A stretch of DNA of 64,000 bases from Dehalococcoidia bacterium (GCA_009841045.1 VXMO01000028.1:2916-66915); one strand, 5' to 3'; shown: positions 10,935 through 59,402, counted from the first letter of the stretch. Notes: a model not told the origin generated them from the sequence alone. Program-made: numbers and translations.

Positions 10935-11000
10935 AGCAATTCTCATCGTACCATCGGCGGGTTTTCCGTTAGTTCTTTTAGAAGTAAGTGGAAGTGCGCT

Positions 11001-11030
11001 CCGTTCGCCTTGAGCCTGTCGAAGTGCGCT
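11001..11030. repeat. dispersed element family B copy (diverged) flanked by a 10-bp direct repeat GAAGTGCGCT
   Basis: CCGTTCGCCT-TGAGCCTGTCGAAG-TGCGCT. GAAGTGCGCT occurs at 10991-11000 and 11021-11030. Confidence 0.5.
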
Positions 11031-11219
11031 GCCGCTCATGGTCCGACAAGCCCACCACGAGGGGGCAAAAACCCTTGACCCAAAGCCTGTTCAGAACGTA
11101 GCATGACGCAATCCGACGGCCATGCGGGGAGGCAGGGAACGCTGATTTTTCGGCTCCTGCACAATGAGGGGAGAGAGGCTCAACGTCTCTGTCACAAGCG
11201 TGAATTACAGGGAGGTGCA

Positions 11220-11474
11220 ATGAACTCCAGCCTGATCAGCAAGATCGAGAAGGCGCGGAAGTACGCCGAGGAGCGGGACGACCGTATCAGGTTCGAGTCG
11301 TTTCGCGCCCGAATCGTCGGCGACAACAGTGAGCACATCGTCGAACTTAAGGACGGCGTGTTCACGTGCGACTGCGACTTCTTTGCAGGCTGGAGTTCTT
11401 GCAGTCATGTGATGGCCCTTGAGCGCATCCTGGGGGCGATGATCCCGGAGCCCCCCGTCCCGGAGCACCGCTAG
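11220..11474 (+). CDS. small SWIM-type zinc-finger protein (84 aa)
   Basis: ATG at 11220 follows AGGGAGGTG. CDCDFFAGWSSCSHVMALE fits the CxCx(n)CxH SWIM signature. Confidence 0.55.
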   Translation: MNSSLISKIEKARKYAEERDDRIRFESFRARIVGDNSEHIVELKDGVFTCDCDFFAGWSSCSHVMALERILGAMIPEPPVPEHR

Positions 11475-11487
11475 CCTGCACTACCCC

Positions 11488-11515
11488 GTCATTCCCGCGA
11501 AAGCAGGAATCCATC
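11488..11515. repeat. dispersed element family A copy (ATTCCCGC-GAAA-GCAGGAAT)
   Basis: It lies between the convergent SWIM and HIT genes. Confidence 0.6.
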
Positions 11516-11519
11516 CGGC

Positions 11520-12014
11520 TCAGAGCTTCTCAAACAGCGGCTTTAGCCGCGCGTAGGTCTGATCCAGGCTTTCCGGCACCAGTTTCGTCTCGCCGACGAC
11601 GGCCATGAAGTTGGTGTCGCCGCCCCACCGTGGAACCACGTGCAAGTGCAGATGGCCCGGCACGCCCGCGCCCGCTAGCTGGCCGATGTTCATTCCGACG
11701 TTGAACCCGTCCGGCCCATACTCCTCTTTGATGATGCCGACGCTCCGCTGGGCAAGCGCCCACATCTCCGCTCCGGTCTCCGGCGGCAGTTCCTCCAGCG
11801 CGCCGATATGAGCATAGGGCGCAATCATCAGGTGGCCGGAGTTGTACGGATAGAGATTCAGAATGACGAACGAACGCTCCGCCCTGTGGAGGATGTAGGT
11901 CTCGTCGTCCTTGTCGAGGGTCGGATTCTCACAGAGGAAGCAGGCGGGCGCACCCTGTTCTCCGGTCTGGCCGGTCACGAATTCCGCTCTCCACGGGGTC
12001 CAGAGCCGTTCCAT
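11520..12014 (-). CDS. HIT family protein
   Basis: HIT motif HLHLHVVPRW, an N-terminal CFLCE, 164 aa. Confidence 0.75.
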   Translation of the reverse strand: MERLWTPWRAEFVTGQTGEQGAPACFLCENPTLDKDDETYILHRAERSFVILNLYPYNSGHLMIAPYAHIGALEELPPETGAEMWALAQRSVGIIKEEYGPDGFNVGMNIGQLAGAGVPGHLHLHVVPRWGGDTNFMAVVGETKLVPESLDQTYARLKPLFEKL

Positions 12015-12026
12015 GGCGCCAATACC

Positions 12027-14180: not shown

Positions 14181-14198
14181 CGAGAGCGGCGGTTCCGT

Positions 14199-14954
14199 TT
14201 AGTCGTTCTCTCCCTGCGACCACTGCCACAGCGCGGGCTTGATTCGTTCAAGGACGAGGATGCCCTTGCGCGTATCGCTTGCCAAGCGCGCCGGGTCGCT
14301 CTTTGCGACACGCCGCTTGAACAGCCAATACGTAAACGTCTTGTATTCGTCCAGAGATGAGCGGACGGGTGCTTTCCTCTTCTTGCCCGTCGCCAAGCGA
14401 AATTCGGTGCGGAGATCGCCACTTGGCGCGCCGTAGAGGCGGTTCATCGCTTCATCTTCGATGAGGTTTTCGCGAGCGGCGAGATTCTGCTGCGCCTTCG
14501 CGACCTCTTCGATGTTGGCCTGCTGCAACGCCTCCTCAACCACGATGCCGTACAGGAAATTCAGGTGAGCGGCATGCTTGCCGTGGCCGATGCTGCGGCG
14601 AAAGAGTTCGGCATTGATGTGAACAGGGGCCCTGCCTTCAAACAGCAGCCGCGTCGCCTCCTGCTCAGGAATCACGTCCCCCGCCGCTTCAATCAACCTC
14701 TCCGCGAGCAGCAGCCAATCAAAGGCCTCTCCTGCAATGACGTATGTATAAGCGCGGCCCTTCAGCTCTTCCCTTGGCGCGCTCCACTCGGCGACGGCGT
14801 TCAGGAGCGCAAGGAACCAGTTCTCACCCCTACGCACATCGGCAACAAACGACTCAATGATCTCCTGCGCGGTTCGAAGCTCCTGTCCCCCATTGACGTG
14901 CGGGGCCTCAACGTCGACGACCGTCTGCGCGGAGGCTCGCGACCGCGAAGTCAT
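14199..14954 (-). CDS. hypothetical protein (251 aa)
   Basis: Long ORF downstream of secA. The start is trimmed to ATG 14954, because the ORF-track start (15257) would overlap the secA 3' end by about 250 nt in another frame. No recognisable motif. Confidence 0.4.
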   Translation of the reverse strand: MTSRSRASAQTVVDVEAPHVNGGQELRTAQEIIESFVADVRRGENWFLALLNAVAEWSAPREELKGRAYTYVIAGEAFDWLLLAERLIEAAGDVIPEQEATRLLFEGRAPVHINAELFRRSIGHGKHAAHLNFLYGIVVEEALQQANIEEVAKAQQNLAARENLIEDEAMNRLYGAPSGDLRTEFRLATGKKRKAPVRSSLDEYKTFTYWLFKRRVAKSDPARLASDTRKGILVLERIKPALWQWSQGEND

Positions 14955-15000
14955 AGCGACTGAGCCGGCCGTGTGGTCGGCCCTTTCGGTAAGCAGCGCA

Positions 15001-30247: not shown

Positions 30248-31207
30248 GTGATAATGACATTTGTTGCTCCATTCAATCTATTGAAGTGGCTCATGCAACG
30301 CATTCTTCTCATAGCTCTGCTGATTGCCGTGGTCGTGACCGCCACACTGCTGGCGGCCTGCTCTGACGAATCGTCTGAACCAACGACGGAGGCGGAACCG
30401 GGAGAGGTCGGCGCTCAAGACGGCACAATCACCGTGTCAAAGGACCAACCTCTGGCCTACGCGCAGGCATTGGTCCAGCAAGCGATTGACCGCTACGGCA
30501 CGGATGGACGCCAGGCAACCATCGACTTCTATAACTCCGAGGAAAGCCTCGATGGTGATTGGCATGTGTTCATCCTCGATGAAGCGGGATACATCGCGTC
30601 CATGGCAGCGTTCCCTGCTTGGGTTGGCGTCCATGATTCCGAGTTCAAGGGATACAAGGACTACCCCGCCGGGCAGATGGTGATCGACGGCGCACACGAG
30701 GAAGGCATCCAAATCGATTACCTCGCCAGGGATTTCTTTGGCAACATCGACCTCAATCATCTTTGGGTCGTCAAACACGATGGACTGGTATTTGCCTCGT
30801 CGTCGTGGTCCGGCGAGGAAATATCGAAGTCGGACCAGCCCGGGTACACGCAAGAACAGGTCAGGCTGGCGATAGGGCTCTATGAAGCGTCCGGCCTGCA
30901 GGCGGCACTCGACTACTACAACAGCCCGGACAGCGTTGACGAGCAATGGTACACGTTCATCGTGGACACGGAGACTGGACGCACAATCGGACACTTCAAT
31001 CCTGACCTGCGTGATCGTGACCCAAGTTTACGCGTCGACTCCACCGGATACTTCTACGGGGATGATCTTCTGGGAGCAACGGAGTCCGGCGACTGGATCC
31101 AGTACGTGATCACGAACCCTGACAATGGTGAAGAACAGCTCAAACACACGTGGGCCGTCCTGCACGATGGCTACATCTTCGCCTCCGGCTGGTACGAAGA
31201 CCCGTAG
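30248..31207 (+). CDS. lipoprotein with two tandem sCache_2-like extracytoplasmic sensor domains (no output domain)
   Basis: Signal and lipobox LLAAC (alternative ATG at 30293). Two repeats of about 140 aa with the pattern YxFxxDxxG...G...DxxGY..G..gxWxxYxxxNPxxG...KHxWxxxHDGxIFxSGWYED. Confidence 0.6.
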   Translation: MIMTFVAPFNLLKWLMQRILLIALLIAVVVTATLLAACSDESSEPTTEAEPGEVGAQDGTITVSKDQPLAYAQALVQQAIDRYGTDGRQATIDFYNSEESLDGDWHVFILDEAGYIASMAAFPAWVGVHDSEFKGYKDYPAGQMVIDGAHEEGIQIDYLARDFFGNIDLNHLWVVKHDGLVFASSSWSGEEISKSDQPGYTQEQVRLAIGLYEASGLQAALDYYNSPDSVDEQWYTFIVDTETGRTIGHFNPDLRDRDPSLRVDSTGYFYGDDLLGATESGDWIQYVITNPDNGEEQLKHTWAVLHDGYIFASGWYEDP

Positions 31208-31267
31208 TTGCTAGAATAGTCGTAGATGTACTCCACTTCCCCATCTTCTCCACAAAGGACATGACCG

Positions 31268-32569
31268 ATGACCAATTCTATTGCCGTCTATAACGTCATC
31301 TCCAGGCGGATAGGGCAGGCTGCGCTGCCAATGCTTCTATTCCTCACTTTGGGGATGCTGGCATTGTCGTTCGGCTGCACTGAGCAACAGGCAGACGATC
31401 TGGCGGCTATTGATGCCCCGAGGAGTCAGCCCACCGCGTACACGCAGGCATACGTACAGGCCGCTATCGATTACTACGAGGCCAACGGACTTGATGAAAC
31501 TGTCAACCATTACAACGATCCCGCCAGCGTTGACGGTCAGTGGTACATCTTCATTGCCGATGAGACCGGGCGCCTCATCGTGCACGGCGCGAACCAGGAC
31601 CTGGTTGGCGTGCCCCTGGACGATGTCATTGACGGGAATGGCTACCCATCGGGCCGAATTGTGGCCAATGATGCTGACGAAGGCGGCGCATGGTCGGAGT
31701 ACGTGTTCTTCAATCCCGCCACCGGCCGTTCACAGGCTAAGCATTCGTGGCTGGTCATCCACGATGGCCTTATCTTCGGCTCCGGCTGGTACGAGGACGG
31801 CCCGCGCAAGTCTGAACAGCCGGCTTACACGCAGGAATATGTGCGCCAGGCATTGAACCTGTATGACTCTTTAGGCCGTGAAGCCCTTGTCGACTATTAC
31901 AACAATCCCGTCAGCATTGATGGCCAGTGGTACATGTTCATCACCGATGAAAGCGGACGCCTCATCGTTAATGGCGCGAACCAGGACCTGATTGGCATGC
32001 CCCTTGTTGACGTCGTCGGGGCGAACGGCTACCCGTCTGGTCGGATCGTGGCGGATGACGCGGATGAAGACGGCGAATGGTCCGTGAACACCTTTTTCAA
32101 CCCTGCCACAGGCCGCTCCCAGATCAAGCACCCGTGGCTGGTCAGACATGATGGTCTGATCTTCGCCTCCGGCTGGTACGAGGACGGCCCGCGCAAATCG
32201 GAACAACCGGCGTACACGCAGGCGCTCGTTCAGCAGGCGCTGAATCTCTATGATTCCTCCGGCCTGGACGTGGCGATTGAGTACTATAGCGATCCTGTCA
32301 GCGTGGACGGCCCATGGTATGTCGGCATCATTGATGCTGAGACGGGACGGACAATCGCCCACTTCAACCCCGATGTGCGAGATCGCGACCCTGCTCTACG
32401 CGTCGATTCGACGGGGTACTTCTACGGAGATGACCTGCTTCGTGCAACGGAGGAGGGTCATTGGTTCGAAGTCGTATTCCACAACCCGGCTACCGGCCAA
32501 GAGGAGCGTAAACATTCGTGGGCCGTCCTGCACGACGGCTACATCTTTTCGTCCGGCTGGTACGAATAA
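31268..32569 (+). CDS. lipoprotein with three tandem sCache_2-like domains, paralogue of the preceding gene
   Basis: Signal and lipobox LSFGC. Three repeats each starting PAYTQ...V.QA...Y and ending SGWYEDGPRKSEQ. Confidence 0.6.
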   Translation: MTNSIAVYNVISRRIGQAALPMLLFLTLGMLALSFGCTEQQADDLAAIDAPRSQPTAYTQAYVQAAIDYYEANGLDETVNHYNDPASVDGQWYIFIADETGRLIVHGANQDLVGVPLDDVIDGNGYPSGRIVANDADEGGAWSEYVFFNPATGRSQAKHSWLVIHDGLIFGSGWYEDGPRKSEQPAYTQEYVRQALNLYDSLGREALVDYYNNPVSIDGQWYMFITDESGRLIVNGANQDLIGMPLVDVVGANGYPSGRIVADDADEDGEWSVNTFFNPATGRSQIKHPWLVRHDGLIFASGWYEDGPRKSEQPAYTQALVQQALNLYDSSGLDVAIEYYSDPVSVDGPWYVGIIDAETGRTIAHFNPDVRDRDPALRVDSTGYFYGDDLLRATEEGHWFEVVFHNPATGQEERKHSWAVLHDGYIFSSGWYE

Positions 32570-37498: not shown

Positions 37499-37516
37499 CA
37501 CTTTCACCTCACCCCA

Positions 37517-37533
37517 GCGAATCTGGATTCGCA
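37517..37533. repeat. short perfect hairpin GCGAATC-TGG-GATTCGC
   Basis: Seen directly. It is the first of three consecutive hairpins in this intergenic region. Confidence 0.4.
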
Positions 37534-37545
37534 GAGCCATTTACC

Positions 37546-37572
37546 TCATTCCAGCGAAAGCTGGAATCCATC
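37546..37572. repeat. dispersed palindromic element, family A copy (ATTCCAGC-GAAA-GCTGGAAT)
   Basis: Matches 11488, 52452 and 53848 copies. Same conserved flanks CATTC...GAATCCATC, GAAA loop, stem with compensatory changes. Confidence 0.6.
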
Positions 37573-37580
37573 GGGCCTCC

Positions 37581-37604
37581 TATTCTGAGCGCAGCGAAGA
37601 ATCC
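37581..37604. repeat. dispersed element family C copy (ATTCTGAGCGCAGCGAAGAATC)
   Basis: Identical 22-mer also at 44105-44126. Confidence 0.55.
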
Positions 37605-37693
37605 GAAAACACCTTTACCAAGGCTCTTGACATGCGCATTTCATGCTTACACAATTACATCAGTTATAGTAATTGTGTTTGGAGGTAACGGCG

Positions 37694-38356
37694 ATGGCGG
37701 AGTCGCGCGGAGACAGGAAGCAGCTCGTTGAGGACATCGACGCGCTGGCGCTCCTCGTTGAGCAGGCGGTTCGAGAGGCAGTTGTCGGCGAGGCGACGCA
37801 GGAGGACATAGACGCGCTCACGGCGAAAGTAGGTGAGGCGGTCCGGTTCGCAGCCGGCGGCGGCGATATCCGCCCGGTCGATGCAGACGCGCTTGCGAAG
37901 GCGATTCTGGAGGCCGTCCGCGAGGCGTACCACGAGGTTCATGCGAACGGCAGGACATTCAATCTGAACTTCGAGGGTCTGGACGATAAGGTCAAGGATG
38001 CCGCACGCGCTGCGGCGTCCGGTGGGGAGGCGCTCGCGGAAAAGCTGAGCCAGGCCCGCCACGGAGCAGCCAACGTGGCGGGGGAAGTCACTGGATTTGT
38101 GCGCGGCATGACGCGAACGGTTCAGCAAGTAGGCAGGAAGAACGTTGTCATGGTGCGGATGGACGATGACGCCCTTGACCACCTGACTATGCTGATCGAC
38201 GCCGACCTCTTCGCCAGCCGCTCCGAGGCAGCGGCGTTCCTGATCACCGAGGGCATCAAGTCCCGCTCAAAACTCTTCAATCGTATCCACGAAAAGATCG
38301 CCGAAATCCGCAAAGCAAAAAGTGACCTGACGGCCATTCTGGAAGAGGAAGAGTAG
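37694..38356 (+). CDS. hypothetical protein with a C-terminal ribbon-helix-helix (CopG/Arc-like) domain
   Basis: ATG at 37694 follows GGAGGT. The C-terminus VVMVRMDDDALDHLTMLIDADLFASRSEAAAFLITEGI has the beta-strand, helix, helix pattern of RHH. The N-terminal 150 aa are Ala/Glu-rich and helical. Confidence 0.55.
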   Translation: MAESRGDRKQLVEDIDALALLVEQAVREAVVGEATQEDIDALTAKVGEAVRFAAGGGDIRPVDADALAKAILEAVREAYHEVHANGRTFNLNFEGLDDKVKDAARAAASGGEALAEKLSQARHGAANVAGEVTGFVRGMTRTVQQVGRKNVVMVRMDDDALDHLTMLIDADLFASRSEAAAFLITEGIKSRSKLFNRIHEKIAEIRKAKSDLTAILEEEE

Positions 38357-38358
38357 CA

Positions 38359-39807
38359 GTGTACATTCGACTGACACGTAAGAAGCACACATCCGACAGA
38401 CCGGGCGTCACACTGACAGCCGGCGCTGTGACCGCGGCCCGTGCAGTGGATGGCACTCAGATTCACAAGTACGCGTATGAGGCTAGGCCGTATGAGGCTA
38501 GGCACGGATTTGCGGCCGAGGACGCCAACCACAGAAACGACATTCTGCGCGGTAGGCCCGCCACCATCGTCGGCACGGACAACAAGCCCAACGGCCCTGA
38601 CCGAAAGGTGAACGGCGTGCTGATCCAGTCGAAGTATTGCAGGACTGCATGGAAGAGCGTCGACTCGGCGTTTGATAAGTGCACCGGCATGTATCGGTAT
38701 GCGGGTCAGGTGCTAGAAGTGCCCAAAGACCAGTTTGACGATGCCGTCCAATACATGGCACGGCGAATTGCCGAGGGCAAGGTGCCGGGCTACAGCGACC
38801 CTGCTGATGCTGTCAAGGTGGTCAAGCAGGGCTCCGTCACTTACCAGCAGGCGAAGAATATAGCCCGCGCAGGTAATCTGGACTCCCTTATCTTCGACGC
38901 CAAGACGCAAGTCGTCAGCTGCCTGTCGGTGGCAGGCATCTCCTTTGTCATAACTTTTGCACGGAGCAGGTGGAGCGGCCGTAGCAACAGGGAGGCTGCT
39001 TGGGATGCCACCAAGTCCGCGGGGCTAGGCATGGGCGCGACGATGGTGACAGGTGTGGTAACGGCCCAACTGTTGCGTACCCCTTTGCCGTCGACTATTG
39101 CCGAAACGCTGACACGCTTGCCAGTGCAGAGGCAGATTGCGCGCGGCCCGATTGCCAGCGTTTTTCGCTCTACTCCGCTCGCCACGGCGATTTCGTTCGG
39201 TATCACGAGCGCGCCGGACTTCTACAGGGCGACACTAGGCCACACCATTTCCAAGCAGCAACTCGCAAAGAATACGTCCATCAACGCGGTGGGCACGGCC
39301 GGAGGATCGGCGGGTTGGGTGGGTGGCATGTACGTTGGTGGCATCATCGGCACAGCAATCCCCGTCCCGGTTGTCGGCACTGCGGCCGGAGCGCTGATGG
39401 GCGGCATTATCGGCTCTCTCAGCATCGGCATGGGAACATCCGCCCTCGCCCACAAGGCCGCAAGTAGAGTCATTGCCGACGATGCTCAGAAGCTCATCGC
39501 CATCATCGAGACGGAACTCGGCATTCTCGCCGAGGAGTACCTCGTATCCGAGGACGAACTCGCCGAGATCGTCAACACAATTGGCGGCCGAGCGAACACC
39601 ACTTGGCTCCGGCGGCTCTACAGAGAAACGCGACGCGCCTCGGATGATGCCGCTGAACGTGATCTTATCCGCGCAGAACTGGAACCCGAGTTTGAGGCTG
39701 TCGGTAAACGGCGCCAGCGCATCACGCCTCCTGGAGAACAGGAAATCAGTGTAATCGCGTTGACATCAGATCCGAGGGATTCTGCGCCAGACATGGCGCT
39801 CGCATAG
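38359..39807 (+). CDS. hypothetical 482-aa protein with a central glycine-zipper hydrophobic segment
   Basis: GTG at 38359, 3 nt after the previous stop. GTAGGSAGWVGGMYVGGIIGTAIPVPVVGTAAGALMGGIIGSLSIGMG is a GxxxG zipper. The N-terminal 230 aa and C-terminal 100 aa match no domain I can recognise. Confidence 0.45.
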   Translation: MYIRLTRKKHTSDRPGVTLTAGAVTAARAVDGTQIHKYAYEARPYEARHGFAAEDANHRNDILRGRPATIVGTDNKPNGPDRKVNGVLIQSKYCRTAWKSVDSAFDKCTGMYRYAGQVLEVPKDQFDDAVQYMARRIAEGKVPGYSDPADAVKVVKQGSVTYQQAKNIARAGNLDSLIFDAKTQVVSCLSVAGISFVITFARSRWSGRSNREAAWDATKSAGLGMGATMVTGVVTAQLLRTPLPSTIAETLTRLPVQRQIARGPIASVFRSTPLATAISFGITSAPDFYRATLGHTISKQQLAKNTSINAVGTAGGSAGWVGGMYVGGIIGTAIPVPVVGTAAGALMGGIIGSLSIGMGTSALAHKAASRVIADDAQKLIAIIETELGILAEEYLVSEDELAEIVNTIGGRANTTWLRRLYRETRRASDDAAERDLIRAELEPEFEAVGKRRQRITPPGEQEISVIALTSDPRDSAPDMALA

Positions 39808-39863
39808 GATTGTGTGCCGCGCGAGCCGCATGGAGGCTTTCTCCCTCTCCTTGCCCGTTCCCC

Positions 39864-40726: not shown

Positions 40727-40770
40727 CCCTCTCCCTCGGGGAGAGGGCTAGGGTGAGGGGGCTAGCCCCC
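40727..40770. repeat. dispersed element family D copy (CCCTCTCC-loop-GGAGAGGG plus GGGGG-CTAG-CCCCC)
   Basis: Near-identical to 53881-53915. The second hairpin contains the priA stop codon. Confidence 0.55.
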
Positions 40771-43212
40771 GCTCATCGGGTCCACATCCACCGTCCAGCC
40801 GGGGGGCAGCGCTACCGTTTCCAGAAGCTTCGTCGGATCGTCGGCAATGATCGTTATCTGCCAGCGATACCGCCCTCGTAGTCGTTCCCACGGAGCCGGC
40901 GCGGGGCCGATGACCCGCGTGTTCATCATGCCGCGCGAGCGAATCTCAGCACGCAGTAACCGCGTCAACTGTCCCGCCGCCTCCTGTACGTCACGCCGTG
41001 AAGTCCGCGCGCACGTCAGCCGAGCCATGCGACTGTACGGCGGATACCGAAGCTGCCTCCTGAACTGCGTTTCCTCGAGGTAGAACTGCCGATAATCCTG
41101 CGCCGCCGCGGCCTGTATCGCCTGGTTCTCCGGCTCATACGTCTGCACGATGACGCGGCCCGGCGCATGGCCTCTCCCCGCCCTGCCCGCCACCTGGCAG
41201 AGCAGTTGAAACACCCTCTCCGAAGCGCGGAAATCTGGCGCGTGCAGCCCGATATCCGCGTTCACCACACCCACAACCGTGACGCCAGGTAGATCCAGTC
41301 CTTTGGCAATCATCTGCGTTCCGACAAGGATGTCCGCGCGGCCATTCGCAAACTCCCCAAGGATCGGCTCATGTCCCCGCGCTTCGTTGACCGCGTCGCG
41401 GTCCCACCGAATGACATGCGCCCCCGGAAATGCCGCCATTGCCTCCTCGGCAACGCGTTCCGTGCCGATGCCTATAGCCCGAATCGTATTGCGACGGCAG
41501 TTTGGGCAGCGGGTGGGCGAGCGTCGCCTCTCCCCGCACAGATGGCACACAATGCGCTCATCGGCGTGGTACGTCATCACCGTCGTGCAGCGACGGCATC
41601 GCATCGTATGGCCGCACGCGCGGCACTGAACCGCCTGCCCCGCCCCGCGCCGGTTCACGAACAGGATCGCCTGCTCACCCCGCGCCAACGCATCGGTCAT
41701 CGCCTCACGGAGCGCTCTTGAAAATATGCTGCGGTTGCCCTCCATCAGCTCCTGCCGCAGATCGACAATCTCTACGTCCGCAAGGGGCCGCTCCGTCCAT
41801 CCCGTGCCGCCGCCGTTCTCAGCAGCCGTAATCCGCCCGGGGAGTTCCAGCAGGGTGATCTCAGTCCTGAGCGCCGCGTACATCGTGCTCACGTCCGGCG
41901 TCGCACTGCCAAGCATCACCACGGCCTTCTCGCGGCGGGCTCGCTCGATAGCCACGTCTCGGGCGTGGTAGCGGGGCGTGGGCGATTCCTGCTTGTACGT
42001 CCACTCCTGCTCTTCGTCCACGACAATCAGGCCAACGTCCGGCATGGGCGCGAGCGCGGCGCTCCGCGAGCCGATGACGATATCGAACTGCCCCTCCGCG
42101 ATGCTGCGCCACTCGTCATACCGCTCCCGCAGCGTCAGCCCGCTGTGGAGAACGGCAACACGACCGGGGAATCGTTCCCAGAACCGGCCGATTGTCTGCG
42201 GCGTCAGCGCAATCTCCGGCACCAGCATGATGCCCCGCCTGCCCTTCTCAATCACGTGCCGAAAGGCTTGCAGGTACACCTCCGTCTTGCCGCTCCCCGT
42301 CACGCCGTGAAGCAGATAAGTGTCGGACACGCCGTCATCAATGCTCGCCGTCACGTGATTCAGCGCGTCTTTCTGGTGGGGAGTGAGTTGGAGATTGGCC
42401 GCAGGAGGAGCAGAGTCCCGTGCAGCAAGCGGATCACGCCGCGTCTCGCGTTGCTCGAGGGTGATCACCCCGGCCTCAGCAAGCGCATCCCAGGACCCCC
42501 GCGCCGCTCCGGAAACACGGCGCAAGTCAGATAAACGTCCACCAAGGTTTGCGGCCAGCGCCTCCAACGCATCCGCCTGCCGAAACGCGCCGGAAGTCCG
42601 CAGTTCCCCTGCTTTGATTCTCAACTGGTCCACCGGGGCTGCCGCCTCAACAAAAGTCTCCATGCGAGGAGAGATGCGCGGCCCCTCCCACACGTCGGAC
42701 GTGTCGAGATAGCCCCTACCTGTCAGCGCCGTTACGTCGCGGGCGGCACGTGCGCCGAACTCGTCGCGGATGGCGGCGGTGGTCGTCTCGCCGGCGGCCT
42801 CAACAAAGGCCAGTATCTCCGCGCGTCGCGGCGAAACGCTCTCCATTGCGTCCCGTCCCGCCTCCGTTACACGAACGATAATCGTCTGCCGTCGCTCGAA
42901 CGCCGGCGGCAGCATGGGGCGGTACGCCGTATAGAGATCGGTCTGATAGTAGGCTGCTATCCACTCGCCCAGGCCAATGAGTGGCGCCGCGATAACCGGA
43001 TCATCGGCGACAAGCGACTCAATAGGCCGCGTTCGGGAATACCCCGGCTCGTCCGTGATTTCCAGAACGATGCCTTGAAACGTGTGGCGACCAAACGGGA
43101 CGATAACCCCATGCCCCGCCCGCACACGATCGGCAAGCTCGTCCGGTATGGAATAACTGTAGGAACGCCGACCGGCTCCGGGTGAGTTGACGGCGACCTG
43201 CGCGTACGGCAT
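40762..43212 (-). CDS. priA: primosomal protein N' (replication restart helicase PriA)
   Basis: Walker A GVTGSGKTEVY, DEEQE, and the Cys4/Cys4 zinc-binding region CRACGHTMRCRRC...CHLCG...CPNC. Confidence 0.9.
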   Translation of the reverse strand: MPYAQVAVNSPGAGRRSYSYSIPDELADRVRAGHGVIVPFGRHTFQGIVLEITDEPGYSRTRPIESLVADDPVIAAPLIGLGEWIAAYYQTDLYTAYRPMLPPAFERRQTIIVRVTEAGRDAMESVSPRRAEILAFVEAAGETTTAAIRDEFGARAARDVTALTGRGYLDTSDVWEGPRISPRMETFVEAAAPVDQLRIKAGELRTSGAFRQADALEALAANLGGRLSDLRRVSGAARGSWDALAEAGVITLEQRETRRDPLAARDSAPPAANLQLTPHQKDALNHVTASIDDGVSDTYLLHGVTGSGKTEVYLQAFRHVIEKGRRGIMLVPEIALTPQTIGRFWERFPGRVAVLHSGLTLRERYDEWRSIAEGQFDIVIGSRSAALAPMPDVGLIVVDEEQEWTYKQESPTPRYHARDVAIERARREKAVVMLGSATPDVSTMYAALRTEITLLELPGRITAAENGGGTGWTERPLADVEIVDLRQELMEGNRSIFSRALREAMTDALARGEQAILFVNRRGAGQAVQCRACGHTMRCRRCTTVMTYHADERIVCHLCGERRRSPTRCPNCRRNTIRAIGIGTERVAEEAMAAFPGAHVIRWDRDAVNEARGHEPILGEFANGRADILVGTQMIAKGLDLPGVTVVGVVNADIGLHAPDFRASERVFQLLCQVAGRAGRGHAPGRVIVQTYEPENQAIQAAAAQDYRQFYLEETQFRRQLRYPPYSRMARLTCARTSRRDVQEAAGQLTRLLRAEIRSRGMMNTRVIGPAPAPWERLRGRYRWQITIIADDPTKLLETVALPPGWTVDVDPMSGG

Positions 43213-43282
43213 GGCCTAACCTTACGCGGTTTGGGCTAACAAGGACGACCGGGGGTGGATTCAGGCCGCTGCGATGAGGAAG

Positions 43283-43951
43283 TTAGGACTTCTCTTCTTC
43301 AGCTTCAGCCGACTCTTCATCCGCTGATTCATCGCCATCGGATTCGGCCTCTGCATCAGCAGGCTCCTCGGGCTCCGTATCCTCAGACGCTTCAGGAGCC
43401 TCTTCAGCTTCCGCCGCGGCCTCCGTCTCAGACGCCTCGGGAGTCTCTTCGGTTGCCTCTACAGCTTCGGCTTCTTCCGCCTCCGCTACAACGTCCTCGG
43501 CCTCGACGACATCATCCTCAATCTCTTCTTCCTCGATGACGTCATCCTCGGCCACAGCAACAGGAGCGTCGGCCTCAACGACTGCGCCGTCCTCGATGAT
43601 GCGGCGGGCGCGCGTGCCGGTCTTGATGCGGGCGCGGCGGCCGGTGCGGCCACGCTGGTAGTACAGGCGGGCGCGGCGAACCTTGCCCTGTCGAACAACG
43701 TCGATGCGCTCAAGGCGCGGCGAGTTCAGCAGGAACGTGCGCTCAACGCCAACACCCTGGATCACGCGGCGGATGGTGATGTTTGCATTCGGGCCGCTGC
43801 GGGTCATCCACATGACCACGCCCTGCAGCTGCTGCGTGCGAACGCGCTCACCCTCAACAACCCGATAGTACACGCGGACGGTATCACCCGGGCGGACGTG
43901 CTGATAACGGTGCTGCCTGGGAATTGAGGTCAGCAGATGCCCGACGTCCAT
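43283..43951 (-). CDS. rplS: 50S ribosomal protein L19 with a roughly 105-aa acidic C-terminal extension
   Basis: L19 core ends about ...RARLYYQRGRTGRRARIKT. It is followed by EDGAVVEADAPVAVAEDDVIEEEEIEDDVVEAEDVV...EEEKS (Ala/Glu/Asp-rich). Confidence 0.85.
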   Translation of the reverse strand: MDVGHLLTSIPRQHRYQHVRPGDTVRVYYRVVEGERVRTQQLQGVVMWMTRSGPNANITIRRVIQGVGVERTFLLNSPRLERIDVVRQGKVRRARLYYQRGRTGRRARIKTGTRARRIIEDGAVVEADAPVAVAEDDVIEEEEIEDDVVEAEDVVAEAEEAEAVEATEETPEASETEAAAEAEEAPEASEDTEPEEPADAEAESDGDESADEESAEAEEEKS

Positions 43952-44102
43952 GATTCAAGCGCCTTTCCTGCGTGTTTCCGCGCGCGGAAACATATGACAG
44001 ATGTGTAGTTGCTCCTATAGTTTGGGGCGTCGCCCGCATCCCGCGTTGGCGACAGCAGTAGTGAGTATACGGCTTTGCGCCGCCCAATAGCAAAAATCCT
44101 CT

Positions 44103-44197
44103 GTCATTCTGAGCGCAGCGAAGAATCTAAAGCCTCAACTGTGCAGCCTTAGACCTCTTTGGATTCTTCTCTCCGCTGTCGCTCCGTTCAGAATGAC
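44103..44197. repeat. imperfect inverted repeat built from a family C element (forward 44103-44127, diverged inverted copy 44162-44197)
   Basis: GTCATTCTGAGCGCAGCGAAGAATC versus GATTCTTCTCTCCGCTGTCGCTCCGTTCAGAATGAC. It lies in the 257-bp trmD-rplS intergenic gap. Confidence 0.5.
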
Positions 44198-47503: not shown

Positions 47504-47609
47504 AAGGGGATCAGACAGTTAGGCAGCACAGCGCGGGGAAAGCATAGGTACAAGAGGACTGCAGGCAGCGCAGCGCGGGAAGCAGTGAGAACGTGGGGAG
47601 TGGCGAGAG

Positions 47610-52309: not shown

Positions 52310-52344
52310 CCCGTTCGCCCTGAGCCTGTCGAAGGGTGAACGGG
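52310..52344. repeat. dispersed element family B copy (CCCGTTCGCCC-TGAGCCTGTCGAAGG-GTGAACGGG)
   Basis: Core TGAGCCTGTCGAAGG shared with 11001, 57153 and 59361. The arms differ but stay complementary. Confidence 0.6.
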
Positions 52345-52367: not shown

Positions 52368-52441
52368 CGGGGCGTAGCGCAGCCCGGCAGCGCGCCTGCT
52401 TTGGGAGCAGGAAGTCCCCGGTTCAAATCCGGGCGCCCCGA
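52368..52441 (+). tRNA. tRNA-Pro (anticodon TGG)
   Basis: Acceptor stem CGGGGCG/CGCCCCG, D-arm AGCGCAGCCCGGCAGCGC, anticodon loop CTTTGGGAG, T-arm GGTTCAAATCC. CCA is not encoded. Confidence 0.85.
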
Positions 52442-52451
52442 CTTCCACCTT

Positions 52452-52476
52452 CGTCATTCCCGCGAAAGCGGGAATC
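52452..52476. repeat. dispersed element family A copy (ATTCCCGC-GAAA-GCGGGAAT)
   Basis: Perfect 8-bp stem with a GAAA loop. Flanks CGTC...C. Confidence 0.6.
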
Positions 52477-52494
52477 TATTGCATATTCCGCAGC

Positions 52495-53733: not shown

Positions 53734-53847
53734 GACCTATATTCCGACCCTGCCCTGACGCACGATAAGGCGCTGTCACACTAACGTATCACGGACGGTG
53801 CTCAAGCTATCATCGATAAGAGGATTAGGGGGAGGGGCAGCCTTCCC

Positions 53848-53875
53848 CTCATTCCTGCGAAAGCAGGAATCCATC
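53848..53875. repeat. dispersed element family A copy (ATTCCTGC-GAAA-GCAGGAAT)
   Basis: Immediately followed by a family D copy. Confidence 0.6.
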
Positions 53876-53880: not shown

Positions 53881-53915
53881 CCCTCTCCCTGAAGGAGAGG
53901 GTTGGGGTGAGGGGG
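53881..53915. repeat. dispersed element family D copy
   Basis: CCCTCTCC-CTGAA-GGAGAGGG then GTTGGGGTGAGGGGG. Matches 40727-40770. Confidence 0.55.
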
Positions 53916-53924
53916 AACATAGCT

Positions 53925-55137: not shown

Positions 55138-55152
55138 TCTTGGAGAGAATCC

Positions 55153-55920
55153 ATGCCGGATTTCATCGACCTTCTGGAACAATTCAATCGTAAAGAGCGC
55201 TTCTTCCTGTTTCTCCGAGCGACAGGAGAAGACGAGCTCAGACTTTCGGCTGCCTTTAGGGAGCAACTGAGTCAAGAAATTGGCATTCCAGTACCTGAGA
55301 CTGCGTACGCGGCCACGGACTACCATCTTGATTGGTTGGCGGCAAGTGTCGTTGCCTATCAACATGAGCAAGCCGGCAAGCAATTCCTTGGGAATATTTT
55401 CCCCAATCACGGGGAACAGAAGATCGTCACAGGCAGCCAAGAAGACATCGACCTCTTGGTGGCTTTTCCAGCACAGGATGGTTTCCATATTGTCCTTGTT
55501 GAGGCGAAGGGTTACGAAAGATGGAGCATCAGTCAACTCAATAGCAAGGCTGAACGATTGAAGCGGATTTTTCCCAATCCAGGCAAAGATGGCATAACGC
55601 CCCACTTTTGTCTGGCGTCCAATGCGACTTCGCGTCCACCGAGGGGGAATAAAGTCACGCTTTGGCCCGAGTGGATGCGTAAGCACACTGAGCCATATTG
55701 GATAGAACTTGATTTGCCAAGAATGCGCCGTAGCGTGACAAGAACAGACAAGCTCGGCAATAGAACCAAGCGGGGCAGAATGTTCAAGATAGTAACGCTG
55801 GAGGACAACAAAGTTCGACGAACACAAGATAGGAGATTTGAGAAAGGTACTCCAAATCGTCTGACAAGGACAGGACAGAAAGATAGGCGTTACAGGGTCA
55901 ACCGAAAGTCTAACTTATGA
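55153..55920 (+). CDS. hypothetical protein with a PD-(D/E)xK nuclease-like motif and a basic tail, in a low-GC segment
   Basis: DIDLLVAFPAQDGFHIVLVEAKGYE (D...ExK). C-terminal 80 aa very Arg/Lys-rich. GC about 50% against about 65% in the flanks. Confidence 0.5.
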   Translation: MPDFIDLLEQFNRKERFFLFLRATGEDELRLSAAFREQLSQEIGIPVPETAYAATDYHLDWLAASVVAYQHEQAGKQFLGNIFPNHGEQKIVTGSQEDIDLLVAFPAQDGFHIVLVEAKGYERWSISQLNSKAERLKRIFPNPGKDGITPHFCLASNATSRPPRGNKVTLWPEWMRKHTEPYWIELDLPRMRRSVTRTDKLGNRTKRGRMFKIVTLEDNKVRRTQDRRFEKGTPNRLTRTGQKDRRYRVNRKSNL

Positions 55921-57140
55921 CCCTCGACGATACCCTTTCCGAGGAGCTGCGCATCCTGCGCCACTCCGTGCGTGAGCTGGTGCGGGATAAGGTCGCTCCC
56001 CGCGCATGGCAGATCGACCAGGACCGCGACTATCCGGAGGATGTCTTTGCAGCCTTTCGCGATCAGGGCCTGTTCGCCTTGGCGCTCCCTGAGAACGAGG
56101 GTGGAACGGACGCAGGAACGATGGGCCTCGCCATCGCCGTCGAAGAGGTTGCGCGGGCCTGCGCCTCCTCCGCGCAGATACTCATACTCTCCGCGCTCGT
56201 CACGTGGCCGATGCGACTCTTCGGCACGGATGATATGCGACAAAACTATGTCCACGCTGTCGCGGACGGCAGCAAGCGCGGCTCCTTCGCCCTGACCGAA
56301 CCCAACGCCTCCTCCGATCTCGGCTCCATGGTCACACGTGCCGAGAAAGACGGCCCCGACTACATACTCAACGGAGAAAAGGACTTCATCAGCGGCTCCC
56401 CGCAGGCGGATTTCTTCATCGTCTTTGCCGGCGCGGGCGATAACGCAGACATGCGAGAAAGCATGACCGCGTTCCTCGTCGATGTCCCGCAGCCCGGCGT
56501 CATCTTTCTCCGCCGCGATGAGGGCATGGGCCTCAAGGGGATGCCCCACTGCGATTGGTCGTTTGACAACTGCCGCACGCCGGAGTCGCATCTAATCGGC
56601 GGCATTGGGAAAGGAGAGGAGATCGCCCGCCTCAGCATGAACGCCATCCAGCCGCTGCTCGCCGCCCGTGGACTCGGCGCGGCGGAGGAGGCGCTGGCAT
56701 TCGCGCGCGACTACGCCAACACGCGCCGCATCTACGGCGGCCTGCTCGCAGACCTGCAGACCACCCAGCTCCACCTTGCTGAGATGGCCGTCAACGTCGA
56801 AGCAACACGGCTGCTAACCTATCAGGCCGCGCGCATGGTGGACGAAGACCGGTTCCGTGACGAAGTCGACGCCGCCTACCTGAACGCCGCCAAACTCATG
56901 TCCGCTCGTACCGCCGTCCACGCAACCGATCACGCCATGCAGGCCGTCGGCGGCCACGCCTATATGGAAGTCCACCCGCTGGAGCGCATGTACCGTGACG
57001 CCCGCCACCTGGGCCTCTACATGGGTACGAGCGAGGTGCTCAGCCTGCGCGTCGCCCGTTCAGTGCTGGACGGCTCGCTCGGCTACGGGCCGTCCGTCTC
57101 TCGCCAATCAACCGAGGAACGTTCGCGTCGGCAGGGGTAG
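55917..57140 (+). CDS. acyl-CoA dehydrogenase
   Basis: 407 aa. ACAD N, middle and C domains, with the catalytic region near YAATKAG absent but the ACAD signature GGHAYMEVHPLERMYRDARHLGLYMGTSE present. Confidence 0.85.
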   Translation: MTLDDTLSEELRILRHSVRELVRDKVAPRAWQIDQDRDYPEDVFAAFRDQGLFALALPENEGGTDAGTMGLAIAVEEVARACASSAQILILSALVTWPMRLFGTDDMRQNYVHAVADGSKRGSFALTEPNASSDLGSMVTRAEKDGPDYILNGEKDFISGSPQADFFIVFAGAGDNADMRESMTAFLVDVPQPGVIFLRRDEGMGLKGMPHCDWSFDNCRTPESHLIGGIGKGEEIARLSMNAIQPLLAARGLGAAEEALAFARDYANTRRIYGGLLADLQTTQLHLAEMAVNVEATRLLTYQAARMVDEDRFRDEVDAAYLNAAKLMSARTAVHATDHAMQAVGGHAYMEVHPLERMYRDARHLGLYMGTSEVLSLRVARSVLDGSLGYGPSVSRQSTEERSRRQG

Positions 57141-57152
57141 GATAAGGGGGTG

Positions 57153-57188
57153 CCCGCTCATCCTGAGCCTGTCGAAGGATGAGAGCGG
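57153..57188. repeat. dispersed element family B copy
   Basis: CCCGCTCATCC-TGAGCCTGTCGAAGG-ATGAGAGCGG. It sits between the ACAD stop and the MBL-gene RBS. Confidence 0.6.
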
Positions 57189-57202
57189 ATAGGAGGGGTA
57201 GG

Positions 57203-58084
57203 ATGTCCGAATTCACGATGCAGGTCGGCGATGCGGAAATCATCGCCGTGACGGACATGAACATCATCTATCCGCGGCCATTGCCGGAGCTTTTCCCTGC
57301 CGTGCCCGTTGAGGCGTGGGACGCGTATCGGGAAGAATTCGCGGACACGTTCGCGGGCAACCACATCCGGTTGGAAATCGGCTGCTACGTCGTTCGCTCG
57401 CAGGGGCGGACAATTCTCATTGACACCGGCTACGGCCCCGGCCCCATAGAGGGAGAACTCGGCCAACTTATGGACAATCTATCCGCCGCCGGGGTTGAGG
57501 CCGGTGACGTGGATGTGGTCTTCTTCTCGCATCTTCACCCCGACCACACCGGCTGGAACACGGTTTGGGGAGAAGCGGAAGAAATTCCCACTGAGCCAAC
57601 GTTCCCCAACGCGCGCTATGTTGTGCACGAGCTTGATCTTGAACACTTTCGCAAGCCGGAGACGCAGGCGGCAATGTCGTTCCCGTTCATGTACCGCGAC
57701 GTGGAGCCGCTGGACACACTCGGAATCCTGGACACGATCGATGAAGACACGAACCTCACGCCCGAGGTGAGAGCAGTTCACACTCCCGGCCACACACCGG
57801 GTCACATGAGTGTCGTCGTTGAGTCCGGCGGCCAGGACGCCATCATCCAGGGCGACATATTCATCCACCCTGCGCAGGTTGTTGAGGACGAGTGGAATTG
57901 CATCTTTGACGTCGATTGGCCGTTGGCAACCGAGGTGCGTCGCAAGATGCTGGACGACGCCGCTGACAAAGGTACGCCGCTGATCTCCTGCCACTTTCCC
58001 CTGCCCGGTTTCGGTCGAATCGGCCGCAAGGGAGGCAAGAGGTACTACCAGGTCGGCCTGGACATCATGCCGGTCAACAACTAG
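57203..58084 (+). CDS. MBL-fold metallo-hydrolase
   Basis: ATG follows AGGAGGGG. HLHPDHTG (HxHxDH) motif. Confidence 0.8.
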   Translation: MSEFTMQVGDAEIIAVTDMNIIYPRPLPELFPAVPVEAWDAYREEFADTFAGNHIRLEIGCYVVRSQGRTILIDTGYGPGPIEGELGQLMDNLSAAGVEAGDVDVVFFSHLHPDHTGWNTVWGEAEEIPTEPTFPNARYVVHELDLEHFRKPETQAAMSFPFMYRDVEPLDTLGILDTIDEDTNLTPEVRAVHTPGHTPGHMSVVVESGGQDAIIQGDIFIHPAQVVEDEWNCIFDVDWPLATEVRRKMLDDAADKGTPLISCHFPLPGFGRIGRKGGKRYYQVGLDIMPVNN

Positions 58085-58095
58085 GAGAAATCGAC

Positions 58096-59343
58096 ATGGC
58101 AACTGACAACGCTCAAAAAATTCTCGACAGCATCAATACCGCCGAGATGACGAGTCTTGCGGAACAGCTTGTCAGCATTCCGAGCTTTAAGACGGAGGAG
58201 ACGGAAGTCGCTCGTTTCCTGGAGGGATATTTCTCGGATCGCGGCTACGAGGTCCAGGTACAGGAGGTGGAGCCGGGCCGATTGCAGACCATCGCCATAC
58301 TGCGCGGCACGGGCGGCGGCAAGTCCTTCATGCTCAACGGCCACACGGACATTGATCCACTCGCCATGGGATGGAAACGCGACCCGTGGACTCCCAGCGT
58401 GGAGGATGACCGCATCTACGGCGGAGGCATCCGCAACATGAAGGCCGGCGTCGCCTCCATGATCACCGCGGCGGAGGCGCTGCGAACATCAGGCGTGGAA
58501 CGACGCGGCGACATCGTTATCGCATGTGTTGTCGGCGAGCTGCAGGGCGGCGTCGGAACAATTTACCTCTGTGAGAACGGCCCGCTCGCGGACATGGCCG
58601 TCATCCCGGAGCCGCACGGCGCGAACAACATCCTGACCACGCACGCGGGCGTTGTTGAGTTCGCTGTCCACATCATCGGCAACTCCCGCCACATCGTCCG
58701 CAAGGATGAGGCCGTTGACGCCATCGCCAACATGGCCAAAGCCATCCCCGCCCTCAACGCCGTCCAATTCACCCACACCCCGCGAGAAGACCTCCCCGGC
58801 CTACCCCGCATCAACGTTGGCGCGATCATCGGCGGGCGCGGGCGCGACTATGACCTGCGCGGCCCCAACTGGGTCGCGGATTTCTGCACTGCCCTCGTCG
58901 ACGTGCGTTTCCTGCCCGGCATGTCCTCTGAATCCGTCAGGGCGGACATTGAACGCGCGCTGGACGCCATCAAGAGCGACGACCCTGATTTCCAGTACGA
59001 AATCGAGATGCCCCCCGACCCGAAACACCGCGTGTTCACGCGCGTGATGGAGCCTTTTGATCTGCCCAAGGACGAGTACATCGTTGATGCTGTGTTGCGG
59101 AGTTTCCGCGCCGTGACGGGCCGTGAACCGGACGGTTTCGGCACGGTTCTGCCCGGCTCCTACACCGGCGACGACACCACGCACCTCTGGCGCGCCGGCG
59201 TCTCGTGCCTCCTCTATGGCGCTGGTGGCGCGTCTGAATCGGAGACCATCCCCGATGAATACGTCCGCATCCCGGACATGGAGCAGGTCGCCCGCGTCCT
59301 CGCCCTCACTGCCCTGGACGTAATCAGCTTGCCCGCTGACTAG
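58096..59343 (+). CDS. M20-family metallopeptidase (ArgE/DapE-like)
   Basis: 415 aa. Metal-binding blocks HTDIDP, a GGGIRNMKAG-like dimerisation lid, and a C-terminal ...YGAGG. Confidence 0.75.
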   Translation: MATDNAQKILDSINTAEMTSLAEQLVSIPSFKTEETEVARFLEGYFSDRGYEVQVQEVEPGRLQTIAILRGTGGGKSFMLNGHTDIDPLAMGWKRDPWTPSVEDDRIYGGGIRNMKAGVASMITAAEALRTSGVERRGDIVIACVVGELQGGVGTIYLCENGPLADMAVIPEPHGANNILTTHAGVVEFAVHIIGNSRHIVRKDEAVDAIANMAKAIPALNAVQFTHTPREDLPGLPRINVGAIIGGRGRDYDLRGPNWVADFCTALVDVRFLPGMSSESVRADIERALDAIKSDDPDFQYEIEMPPDPKHRVFTRVMEPFDLPKDEYIVDAVLRSFRAVTGREPDGFGTVLPGSYTGDDTTHLWRAGVSCLLYGAGGASESETIPDEYVRIPDMEQVARVLALTALDVISLPAD

Positions 59344-59345
59344 CC

Positions 59346-59402
59346 CGTCATTCCCGCCGCCTCCCGTTCGCCCTGAGCCTGTCGAAGGGGGCTCCCGAAC
59401 GG
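59346..59402. repeat. composite: a truncated family A element followed by a family B copy
   Basis: CGTCATTCCCGC then CTCCCGTTCGCCC-TGAGCCTGTCGAAGG-GGGCTCCCGAACGGAGG. Confidence 0.5.

Follow-up and report, generated by a model that had tools for sequence, protein, structure and literature searches.

Short palindromic repeats that resemble the elements studied here have been described from bacteria in several forms. In the REPIN-RAYT system (Nunvar 2010; Bertels & Rainey 2011; Ton-Hoang 2012), REP elements (repetitive extragenic palindromes) persisting within lineages form hairpins with an unpaired 5′ GTAG tetranucleotide, occur as inverted dimers, and are accompanied by a REP-associated tyrosine transposase (RAYT) gene. 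In the survey by Di Nocera, De Gregorio & Rocco (2013; PMC3733652), class CGTC-1 is equated with Neisseria dRS3 and Rickettsia RPE-6, CGTC repeats never flank Y1 transposase genes, even in Y1-encoding genomes, and a transposase linked to the class was not found. For the BoxC/PIT elements of E. coli, also termed TM_ECO, Holder et al. (2015, Nucleic Acids Research; PMC4666352) likewise report no association with a transposase, neither promoter nor terminator activity, and unusual rearrangement of the loci bearing the motif. The describing papers leave open how such transposase-less repeats, near-identical between Chloroflexota and bacteria such as E. coli and Neisseria, originate and spread. Here, we analyze four families (A to D) of short intergenic palindromes in a 64-kb stretch of DNA (hereafter, the window) from an uncultured Dehalococcoidia bacterium of the Chloroflexota. 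We consider it probable (about 0.68) that they are short, non-autonomous palindromic repeats at the DNA level, of the REP and bacterial interspersed mosaic element (BIME) class.

A first-pass annotation of the window had recognized the four families, and pattern searches confirmed their places, with counts far above chance and with covarying stems. Family A has four full copies of the form YCTC/CGTC-ATTCCNGC-GAAA-GCNGGAAT-CYAT, all on the + strand (the strand as shown; all positions are those of the whole window), and its pattern had no match in shuffled sequence. The 15-nt core of family B, TGAGCCTGTCGAAGG, starts at 11011, 52321, 57164, and 59374, always on the + strand, where 0.17 occurrences would be expected by chance. 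The family C pattern matches at 37582-37603 and 44106-44127, and family D lies at 40727-40761 and 53881-53915. Of the ~33 intergenic regions that are 25 nt or longer, 8 contain elements, and the copies fold as single-stranded DNA into predicted hairpins (ViennaRNA, DNA parameters). The adjacencies noted earlier (A with C, A with D, A with B, and tRNA-Pro flanked by B and A) are all correct. The individual elements are as follows.

A1, 11487-11515, + strand: CGTC-ATTCCCGC-GAAA-GCAGGAAT-CCATC, with a C·A stem mismatch; between convergent genes.
A2, 37544-37572, + strand: tag CCTC, variable pair A:T; 6 nt upstream of C1.
A3, 52452-52480, + strand: 10 nt downstream of tRNA-Pro.
A4, 53847-53875, + strand: tag CCTC, T:A pair; located in the divergent MFS/glyoxalase region, with D2 5 nt downstream.
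A half-copy, 59345-59358, + strand: CCGTCATTCCCGCC, the left arm only.
B1, 11000-11066, + strand: core with one mismatch plus an inverted B-like partner; divergent intergenic region.
B2, 52310-52344, + strand: stem of 12 bp that includes a conserved G·T, and the apex CCT-GA-G-CCTGT-C-GA-AGG; upstream of tRNA-Pro.
B3, 57153-57188, + strand: between the acyl-CoA dehydrogenase and MBL genes.
B4, 59360-59406, + strand: variant whose 3′ arm has an inserted GGCTCC; belongs to an A-half/B mosaic.
C1, 37579-37604, + strand: ATTCT-GA-GC-GCA-GC-GA-AGAAT, tag CCT.
C2, 44102-44198, unstranded: inverted dimer (REPIN-like), TGTCATTCTGA...TCAGAATGACA; between trmD and rplS.
D1, 40727-40761, + strand: CCCTCTCCC-TCG-GGGAGAGGG-CTA-GGGTGAGGGGG; abuts the priA stop codon.
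D2, 53881-53915, + strand: the glyoxalase ATG (53926) follows its G-rich tail at a distance of 10 nt.
tRNA-Pro(TGG), 52368-52442, + strand: context for the flanking B2 and A3.

Families A and D have been described before, which the first-pass annotation had missed. Family A is a member of the published CGTC-1 class: every feature given for that class (an unpaired 5′ CGTC, TGTC or CCTC tag, an 8-bp stem beginning with AT, a 4-nt loop, a CCA-like tail, and no adjacent transposase gene) is found in family A as well. The window copies carry CGTC twice and CCTC twice, and among 192 copies from many genomes the tag is CGTC in 111 and TGTC in 63. Their stem (ATTCCNGC/GCNGGAAT, GAAA loop) has 8 bp, with a C·A mismatch in one window copy, and the 3′ unpaired tail is CCA in A1, A2, and A4 and CTA in A3 (class consensus, CCA). 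A Neisseria gonorrhoeae sequence printed in PMC7593972 includes CGTCATTCCCGCGAAAGCGGGAATCTA, a dRS3-type copy that is the same as A3 over 27 nt, and the read-through peptide SFPRKRES, listed in PMC3733652, is the translation of the family A sequence. CGTC-1 repeats form mostly head-to-head dimers, whereas the A copies of the window occur as single units that all point one way and are stacked with other families; this arrangement is a tendency of the class and not a strict criterion, and head-to-head dimers of family A do occur in other genomes, many of them in Xanthomonadales loci. CGTC-1 is a class of high copy number per genome; the 64-kb window holds four to five A copies, and further ones occur in each element-bearing relative. 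The piece at 59346 that had been called a truncated A is indeed partial, yet it is a conserved half-copy, CCGTCATTCCCGCC, of which one to three tandem units precede a full A at the corresponding site of relatives (L205, L414, L415, and L417); a second arm-like piece, CCTCATTCCGCC, lies beyond it at ~59417-59428. A further arrangement, absent from the window, was seen in an Ignavibacterium album metagenome-assembled genome (MAG; L067, 5792-5930), where four A copies stand head-to-tail with a 36-nt period (TTTTTTCTCTGTCATTCCCGCGAAAGCGGGAATCTA).

Family D is, by alignment and layout, the BoxC/PIT/TM_ECO intrastrand triplex motif of E. coli. D2 aligned over its full length (39 nt) to E. coli copies with 92.5% identity, D-like copies occur in 4,834 of 5,426 complete E. 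coli genomes (median, 7 per genome), and D also aligned to the TM_ECO sequences in Table 1 of PMC4666352. Both window copies have the BoxC layout of a pyrimidine arm, loop, purine arm, short linker, and second G-rich segment, and the published motif consists of the same segments (CCCTCTCCC - loop - GGGAGAGGG - 2-3 nt - GGGTGAGGG). The computed fold covers the hairpin part of D only; the second G-rich segment is the one that would act as the third strand of a triplex. Like BoxC/PIT, D is intergenic, adjoins no mobility gene, and sits at loci that are rearranged between relatives. It differs in two respects: D adjoins CGTC-type repeats here, unlike BoxC (the A+D pairing occurs again in IMG/VR contig L018), and all ~6 copies in this lineage are co-oriented, whereas E. 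coli BoxC has no strand bias. The priA stop codon (40762-40764), previously placed within a D copy, is outside the element, which D1 abuts. The G-rich tail of D2 occupies the place that an ordinary GGAGG holds upstream of the glyoxalase ATG in relatives. In two of these relatives, tandem arrays of a 22-nt unit, CCCCCTCTCC(T/C)CCCGGTTAA, adjoin a C copy between the glyoxalase and SDR genes (~10 copies at L416 3268-3500 and ~2 at L417 3414-3470) and resemble the pyrimidine arm of D.

Families B and C are REP-like families for which we found no description: a full-text literature search, which is a weak test of novelty, returned no paper describing their core sequences. They share the core CTGAGC-N4-CGAAG with tandem G·A mismatches, such that the hairpin holds two G·A/A·G mismatches in Y-GA-R context beside G-C pairs. 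C is a TGTC-tagged relative with mismatches of the sheared type and the apex GC-GNA-GC; B places the same core within a longer hairpin. Hybrid copies with a C-type stem and a B-type center (in L204, at 18540, and in L114) indicate that B and C are one superfamily. The arms of B had been thought variable; in fact, the 5′ arm CCGTTCGYCC is conserved (its CCGTTCG is kept as sequence even without a complementary 3′ arm downstream), and it is only the inner Y:R pair that covaries cleanly. B1 is an inverted dimer, whose B-like partner lies at ~11035-11066 (reverse complement, CCTCGTGGTGGGCTTGTCGGACCATGAGC). Similarly, the sequence at 44162-44197 noted as a diverged inverted C is an inverted C, but it forms one 97-nt inverted dimer with C2 (44102-44198), whose DNA fold has a free energy of −23 kcal/mol (z = −5.6) and whose termini, TGTCATTCTGA/TCAGAATGACA, would be the terminal inverted repeats in a comparison with miniature inverted-repeat transposable elements (MITEs). 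B3, which had been proposed to overlie the ribosome-binding region of the MBL gene, in fact stops a few bases upstream of the Shine-Dalgarno sequence, the true ATG being at 57203.

The hairpin is preserved by compensatory change. Covariation was counted only at positions left as N in the search patterns, so that the counts are not forced by the pattern. The variable stem pair of A is Watson-Crick in 186 of 192 copies (125 C-G, 34 G-C, 14 T-A, and 13 A-T; the rest are four C·A and two G·T), the free stem pair of C in 151 of 152, with all four pair types, and the inner Y:R pair of B in 101 of 106, with G·T in the remaining five. Pairing is thus kept across hundreds of copies, contrary to the loss of pairing in larger samples that the first-pass annotation had named as a refutation, although the earlier statement that the A stem always pairs fails for A1 (11487), which has C·A at the variable position. 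The loop N of C can be any base (C 58, A 52, G 27, and T 15), and Watson-Crick pairs never occur at the sites of the tandem G·A mismatches in B and C. Among 71 A copies not selected by the scans, the tag-strand loop is GNNA in 42 and the flipped TTTC in one. The chemistry of loop and mismatches is conserved on one strand only, that with the 5′ YGTC tag.

These elements are not confined to Dehalococcoidia. An exact A 25-mer with two free positions occurs in at least 120 stretches of GTDB species genomes, with hosts in the Alpha-, Beta-, Gamma-, and “Delta”-proteobacteria, Chloroflexota, Dehalococcoidia, Nitrospirota, Planctomycetota, Omnitrophota, Ignavibacteria, Bacteroidota, Spirochaetia, Zixibacteria, and Vampirovibrionales, as well as one candidate phyla radiation MAG and one Nanoarchaeota MAG. 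This breadth is clearly beyond the five phyla listed for CGTC repeats in the 2013 survey, which do not include Chloroflexota, the host phylum of family A in the window. The B pattern (21 to 23 bases) was found in 87 IMG/VR stretches and the C pattern in at least 120; B and C also occur in loci that were fetched for A alone (from Chloroflexota, Acidobacteriota, Planctomycetota, and others), and all four families were found together in unrelated loci.

Comparison with relatives reveals that copies have been inserted, deleted, partly duplicated, and stacked into mosaics over the divergence of genomes that are 72 to 91% identical. Eight relative contigs (L203 to L206 and L414 to L417) are collinear with window positions 45 to 64 kb at 72 to 91% identity; with metagenome contig L140 (LXNJ01000694.1), which is syntenic to 32.6 to 45.9 kb at 83 to 86% identity, this gives nine syntenic relatives. 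Homologues of the acyl-CoA dehydrogenase (55917-57140) that are 81 to 94% identical lie on megabase contigs of uncultured Dehalococcoidia, from which the eight contigs were taken. In L140, the C2 dimer (~100 nt, between trmD and rplS) is missing at the orthologous site, where the trmD stop runs straight into shared downstream sequence. Also missing there is the 26-nt hairpin of D1, of which a remnant, CCCCTCAACCCT, stays behind the priA stop codon. Finally, window positions 37499-39863 (2.36 kb, holding A2, C1, and two genes) are replaced in L140 by 82 nt with a degenerate A, and the boundary of this indel coincides with A2+C1. Of the two genes, 37673-38356 has no Pfam hit and 38359-39807 has only a sub-threshold hit to DUF1269.

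Filled and empty states alternate among the other relatives. B2 is present in the window and L414 and absent from L203, L204, L205, L415, L416, and L417; the B3 site is filled in the window, L203, and L414 and empty (21 to 22 nt) in L204, L416, and L417; and the window shares A3 with L204, L205, and L415, while it is missing from L203, L206, L416, and L417. At the A3 position, directly downstream of tRNA-Pro, three of these contigs have a HicB-family antitoxin gene (L203 6723-7151, L416 1139-1567, and L417 1285-1713), and L414 has an insertion of ~400 nt (~1500-1900) with an unannotated 150-aa open reading frame (ORF), the MFS-side A copy not being seen there either. In the A3 orthologue of L205 (7310-7340), the loop reads GC-TTTC-GC with the CGTC tag and the tail unchanged, which implies that the loop of this perfect palindrome was inverted in place. 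The A4+D2 pair exists in the window only and is absent from all eight syntenic relatives covering the region, whereas L416 and L417 have a D between the SDR and acyl-CoA dehydrogenase genes. In L204, a 431-nt mosaic of A, B, C, B, and a C dimer separates the glyoxalase and SDR genes, and a duplicated A - GCGGCGC(N3)GCGCCGC - B unit follows the M20 peptidase gene, its window counterpart being A-half/B4. The middle part of this unit belongs to a fifth palindrome family, GCGGCGC-N3-GCGCCGC, that in relatives regularly follows A (…GGAATCCAGTGCGGCGCACAGCGCCGC…; L203 13455-13478, and L204 13425-13450 and 13557-13582); the window retains only its final bases (CGCC), after the A half-copy. Such stacks recall the BIMEs of E. 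coli and the intergenic mosaic elements of Neisseria, in which several unrelated short repeat families are likewise stacked within 30 to 430 nt and composition varies by strain; BIMEs, however, are made of other component families and their REPs alternate in orientation, whereas the stacks here are co-oriented.

Orientation follows strand composition. In the window, 13 of ~15 units lie on the + strand, whose GC skew is negative throughout, and over nine syntenic loci (the window and eight relatives) the + strand carries ~44 units and the − strand two, both of the latter being second arms of C dimers, while the genes of these loci run in both directions. In independent Chloroflexota loci, elements lie on the + strand where its skew is negative (L029, L061, and L091) and on the − strand where it is positive (L030). 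For unrelated loci, in which one orientation was counted per locus for A, B, and C and each copy was counted for D, the tag strand of B is the C-rich strand in 54 and the G-rich strand in 27 (P = 0.004), and that of C in 71 and 34 (P = 0.0004). This bias is kept in loci of mixed gene direction (B, 20:9; C, 28:7). When scored against the strand that holds most of the genes, orientation was unbiased (A, 71:62; B, 27:36; C, 58:51, from crude longest-ORF gene calls), and A copies between tandem genes show no preference (34 sense and 31 antisense). The tag strand thus lies preferentially on the C-rich strand, without preference relative to transcription. For D, the count per copy (23 C-rich and 16 G-rich) is not significant, in agreement with the E. 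coli report (PMC4666352). A strand-composition bias of the kind seen here finds no mention in the passages of Di Nocera et al. 2013 considered here. The most distant relative, L206 (72% nucleotide identity), has the same gene order and orientation, the opposite GC skew (+0.05), and none of the repeat families.

If the elements are non-autonomous REP-type repeats, the constrained unit would be a single-stranded DNA hairpin on the tag strand, given that the apices and the Y-GA-R tandem mismatches are unusually stable single-stranded DNA hairpin motifs. The mini-hairpin motif of DNA is GCGNNAGC or GCGNAGC, with N being any base (review, PMC13037366). In the terms of Hirao and co-workers, d(GCGAAAGC)/d(GCGNAGC), the apex of A is GCGAAAGC and that of C is GCGNAGC with N unconstrained. 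That literature (PMC13037366) covers phage origins and promoters, and a link to genome-wide dispersed repeats was not found there. On the opposite strand, B and C would have C·T mismatches in place of G·A and no mini-hairpin loop, and this strand should fold much less well. Elements may insert or survive mainly in the orientation that keeps the strongly folding strand off the lagging-strand template, where a stable hairpin would block replication or be lost by deletion. Sequences that form hairpins are known to be less stable when they lie on that template. The gradient of the bias fits this polarity: it is strong for B and C, whose mismatches are asymmetric, weak for A, whose perfect stem forms on both strands, and absent for D in unrelated loci. 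Spread would proceed through a trans-acting enzyme or through template switching in replication or repair, not through an adjacent gene, and the effects on neighboring genes (3′ hairpins, the replaced Shine-Dalgarno region, and indel boundaries) would be by-products.

Several points weigh against this account. Cross-phylum labels derive from MAGs, some of them evidently mis-binned (e.g., MAGs labeled “Bordetella parapertussis”). At none of the filled/empty sites could a clean target-site duplication or an exact insertion boundary be read, the flanks being mostly rearranged as well; B3 has GATAG on both sides, within an ambiguous G-rich context. Since a mobilizing enzyme was not identified, to call the elements “mobile” relies on presence and absence and not on an observed mechanism. 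Over all loci, the tag strand of A is C-rich in 41 and G-rich in 35 (40:34 in another count), which is not significant; at an absolute skew of at least 0.03, the counts are 26 and 11 (P = 0.02). To read the bias in terms of replication takes local GC skew as a proxy for replication direction, and most B and C loci from outside the lineage are IMG/VR contigs of unspecified replication mode. A single C folds at only −2.2 kcal/mol (z = −0.25), although sheared G·A pairs and mini-hairpins are not covered by the ViennaRNA DNA parameters, and the stability claimed for C would be that given in the literature. Lastly, GAAA/GNRA loops, tandem G·A pairs, and a conserved G·T, as in B, are equally typical of RNA.

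A wider version of this account is tentative and on balance doubtful: A, B, and C, and perhaps D, might constitute a single pan-bacterial class of single-stranded DNA elements built from unusually stable non-B motifs (mini-hairpins, tandem mismatches, and a triplex), spreading across phyla, probably borne by phages or other mobile DNA, lacking a dedicated adjacent transposase, coupled to replication, and distinct from REP-RAYT. The strongly folding strand would then lie mainly on the C-rich strand, taken as the leading-strand template, and the account, if true, would amount to a replication-polarized repeat system.

It is unlikely that the elements are instead small structured RNA modules (3′ untranslated region stabilizers, processing sites, or attenuators) under selection at the RNA level, as the first-pass annotation had entertained. 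The covarying stems would be expected of such modules, as would loops that read GAAA, GCAA, GUAA, or GGAA and the conserved wobble of B, which is compatible with G·U; in addition, most window copies are sense to at least one neighboring + strand gene or in 3′ regions, with A3 only 10 nt after tRNA-Pro. However, a scan against Rfam gave no match at any element, either at the gathering score, which tRNA-Pro alone reached, or at E ≤ 10. Among the ~130 to 190 copies per family, neither orientation is preferred with respect to genes; D1 and C2 lie antisense in their operons, and copies also lie in divergent promoter regions. Furthermore, the orthologous A copy of L205 has its loop flipped to UUUC, and copies are missing, hence dispensable, at the same operon junctions in close relatives. 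The lack of promoter and terminator activity of BoxC/PIT in E. coli (PMC4666352) points the same way, as does the absence of a U-tract after the hairpins. Indeed, the elements are not simply terminators, as had been stated: none is among the terminator-like sites at 44 to 60 kb, and intrinsic terminators were rejected because T-runs are absent, the tails being CCATC..., CTATT..., and GGGAAC.... A hammerhead-like reading of C (GUC ... CUGA ... GAA) was also discarded on inspection, in that CUGANGA is incomplete, leaving only GA/stem/GAA, and no Rfam ribozyme matched.

Equally improbable is classical REP-RAYT (REPIN) dispersal, in which a single-copy Y1 tyrosine transposase encoded elsewhere recognizes the tag plus hairpin and copies the elements. 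The architecture is like that of GTAG REPs, in which a hairpin has an unpaired tetranucleotide on its 5′ side and ends in a short tail; some copies form inverted dimers (in the window C2 and B1, elsewhere the many head-to-head A pairs of Xanthomonadales loci); and single-strand transposition would give a strand-asymmetric distribution. The tags are nevertheless CGTC, TGTC, or CCTC and not GTAG, repeats tagged CGTC never flank Y1 genes in the defining survey, and a RAYT gene was not found. A search for HUH/Y-motif ORFs found none in the window and a single, unrelated one (L187) in 3.6 Mb around ~600 copies, although this motif scan was crude, is weak evidence, and is uninformative for a single-copy gene. 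We know of no RAYT gene for the CGTC class. The enzymes of IS200/IS605 elements use the lagging-strand template. The strand whose structure is conserved here is the C-rich one and, if skew marks the leading strand, is not that template. The proposal of a REP/MITE-type element with a cognate RAYT therefore holds in its first half (copies are multiple, intergenic, and covarying, include some inverted dimers, and are present or absent across genomes of 72 to 91% identity), while its RAYT half fares poorly with a CGTC/TGTC tag in place of GTAG.

It is highly improbable that the elements are recognition sites kept by a host or parasite, whether for nucleoid, gyrase, or integration host factor-type proteins (as in the BIMEs of E. 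coli) or as safe-harbor targets of site-specific recombinases, IS110-type elements, or phages, in that the extreme conservation of tag, stem, and tail across phyla, the indels and foreign genes beside copies (the 2.36-kb block at A2+C1 and, at the A3 site, the HicB-family gene of L203, L416, and L417 and the insertion of L414), and the proposed service of Neisseria dRS3 as a phage or IS target are set against flanking genes annotated as ordinary housekeeping genes, with no recombinase or IS110-type gene found beside the window copies, against the dispensability of copies in relatives, and against the fact that such a role explains persistence and not the origin of new copies.

With non-autonomous REP-type repeats as the preferred reading and A and D already known, what is added here is modest: the host lineage, the co-oriented mosaics, and the polarity with respect to strand composition. 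The lineage offers a tractable test bed, as it has long-read megabase relatives in which the same sites are filled, empty, half-copied, or stacked, and copies that are near-perfectly co-oriented. The elements also have practical effects, in that they break short-read assemblies, create spurious small ORFs, and can replace ribosome-binding regions. For example, a short-read Logan contig of the same strain (L001, SRR9841446), with a PriA identical to that of the window, corresponds to window positions 40730-44127; one of its termini falls within D1 and the other at the end of C2, which is what assembly breaks caused by repeats would give.

Other features of the window touch on these families less directly. 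A 780-bp segment of lower G+C content (55138-55916) between the SDR and acyl-CoA dehydrogenase genes, with an ORF (55153-55920, 255 aa) that has no Pfam hit, is absent from all eight syntenic relatives (31 to 109 nt there). None of the repeat families flanks this segment, which resembles a recent insertion of foreign DNA. Upstream of A2 and 3′ of the stop of gene 35450-37498, a perfect 7-bp palindrome, GCGAATC-TG-GATTCGC (37517-37540), could be a further repeat family or a plain 3′ hairpin. Upstream of ftsA (47504-47609) are two direct copies of GGCAGC(A/G)CAGCGCGGG(G)AAGCA, ~55 nt apart. Lastly, two adjoining genes (30248-32569) contain internal direct repeats with a period of ~387 nt and 68 to 83% identity, each closing with a conserved ...HDG.IF.SGWYE motif, which indicates a repeated protein domain.

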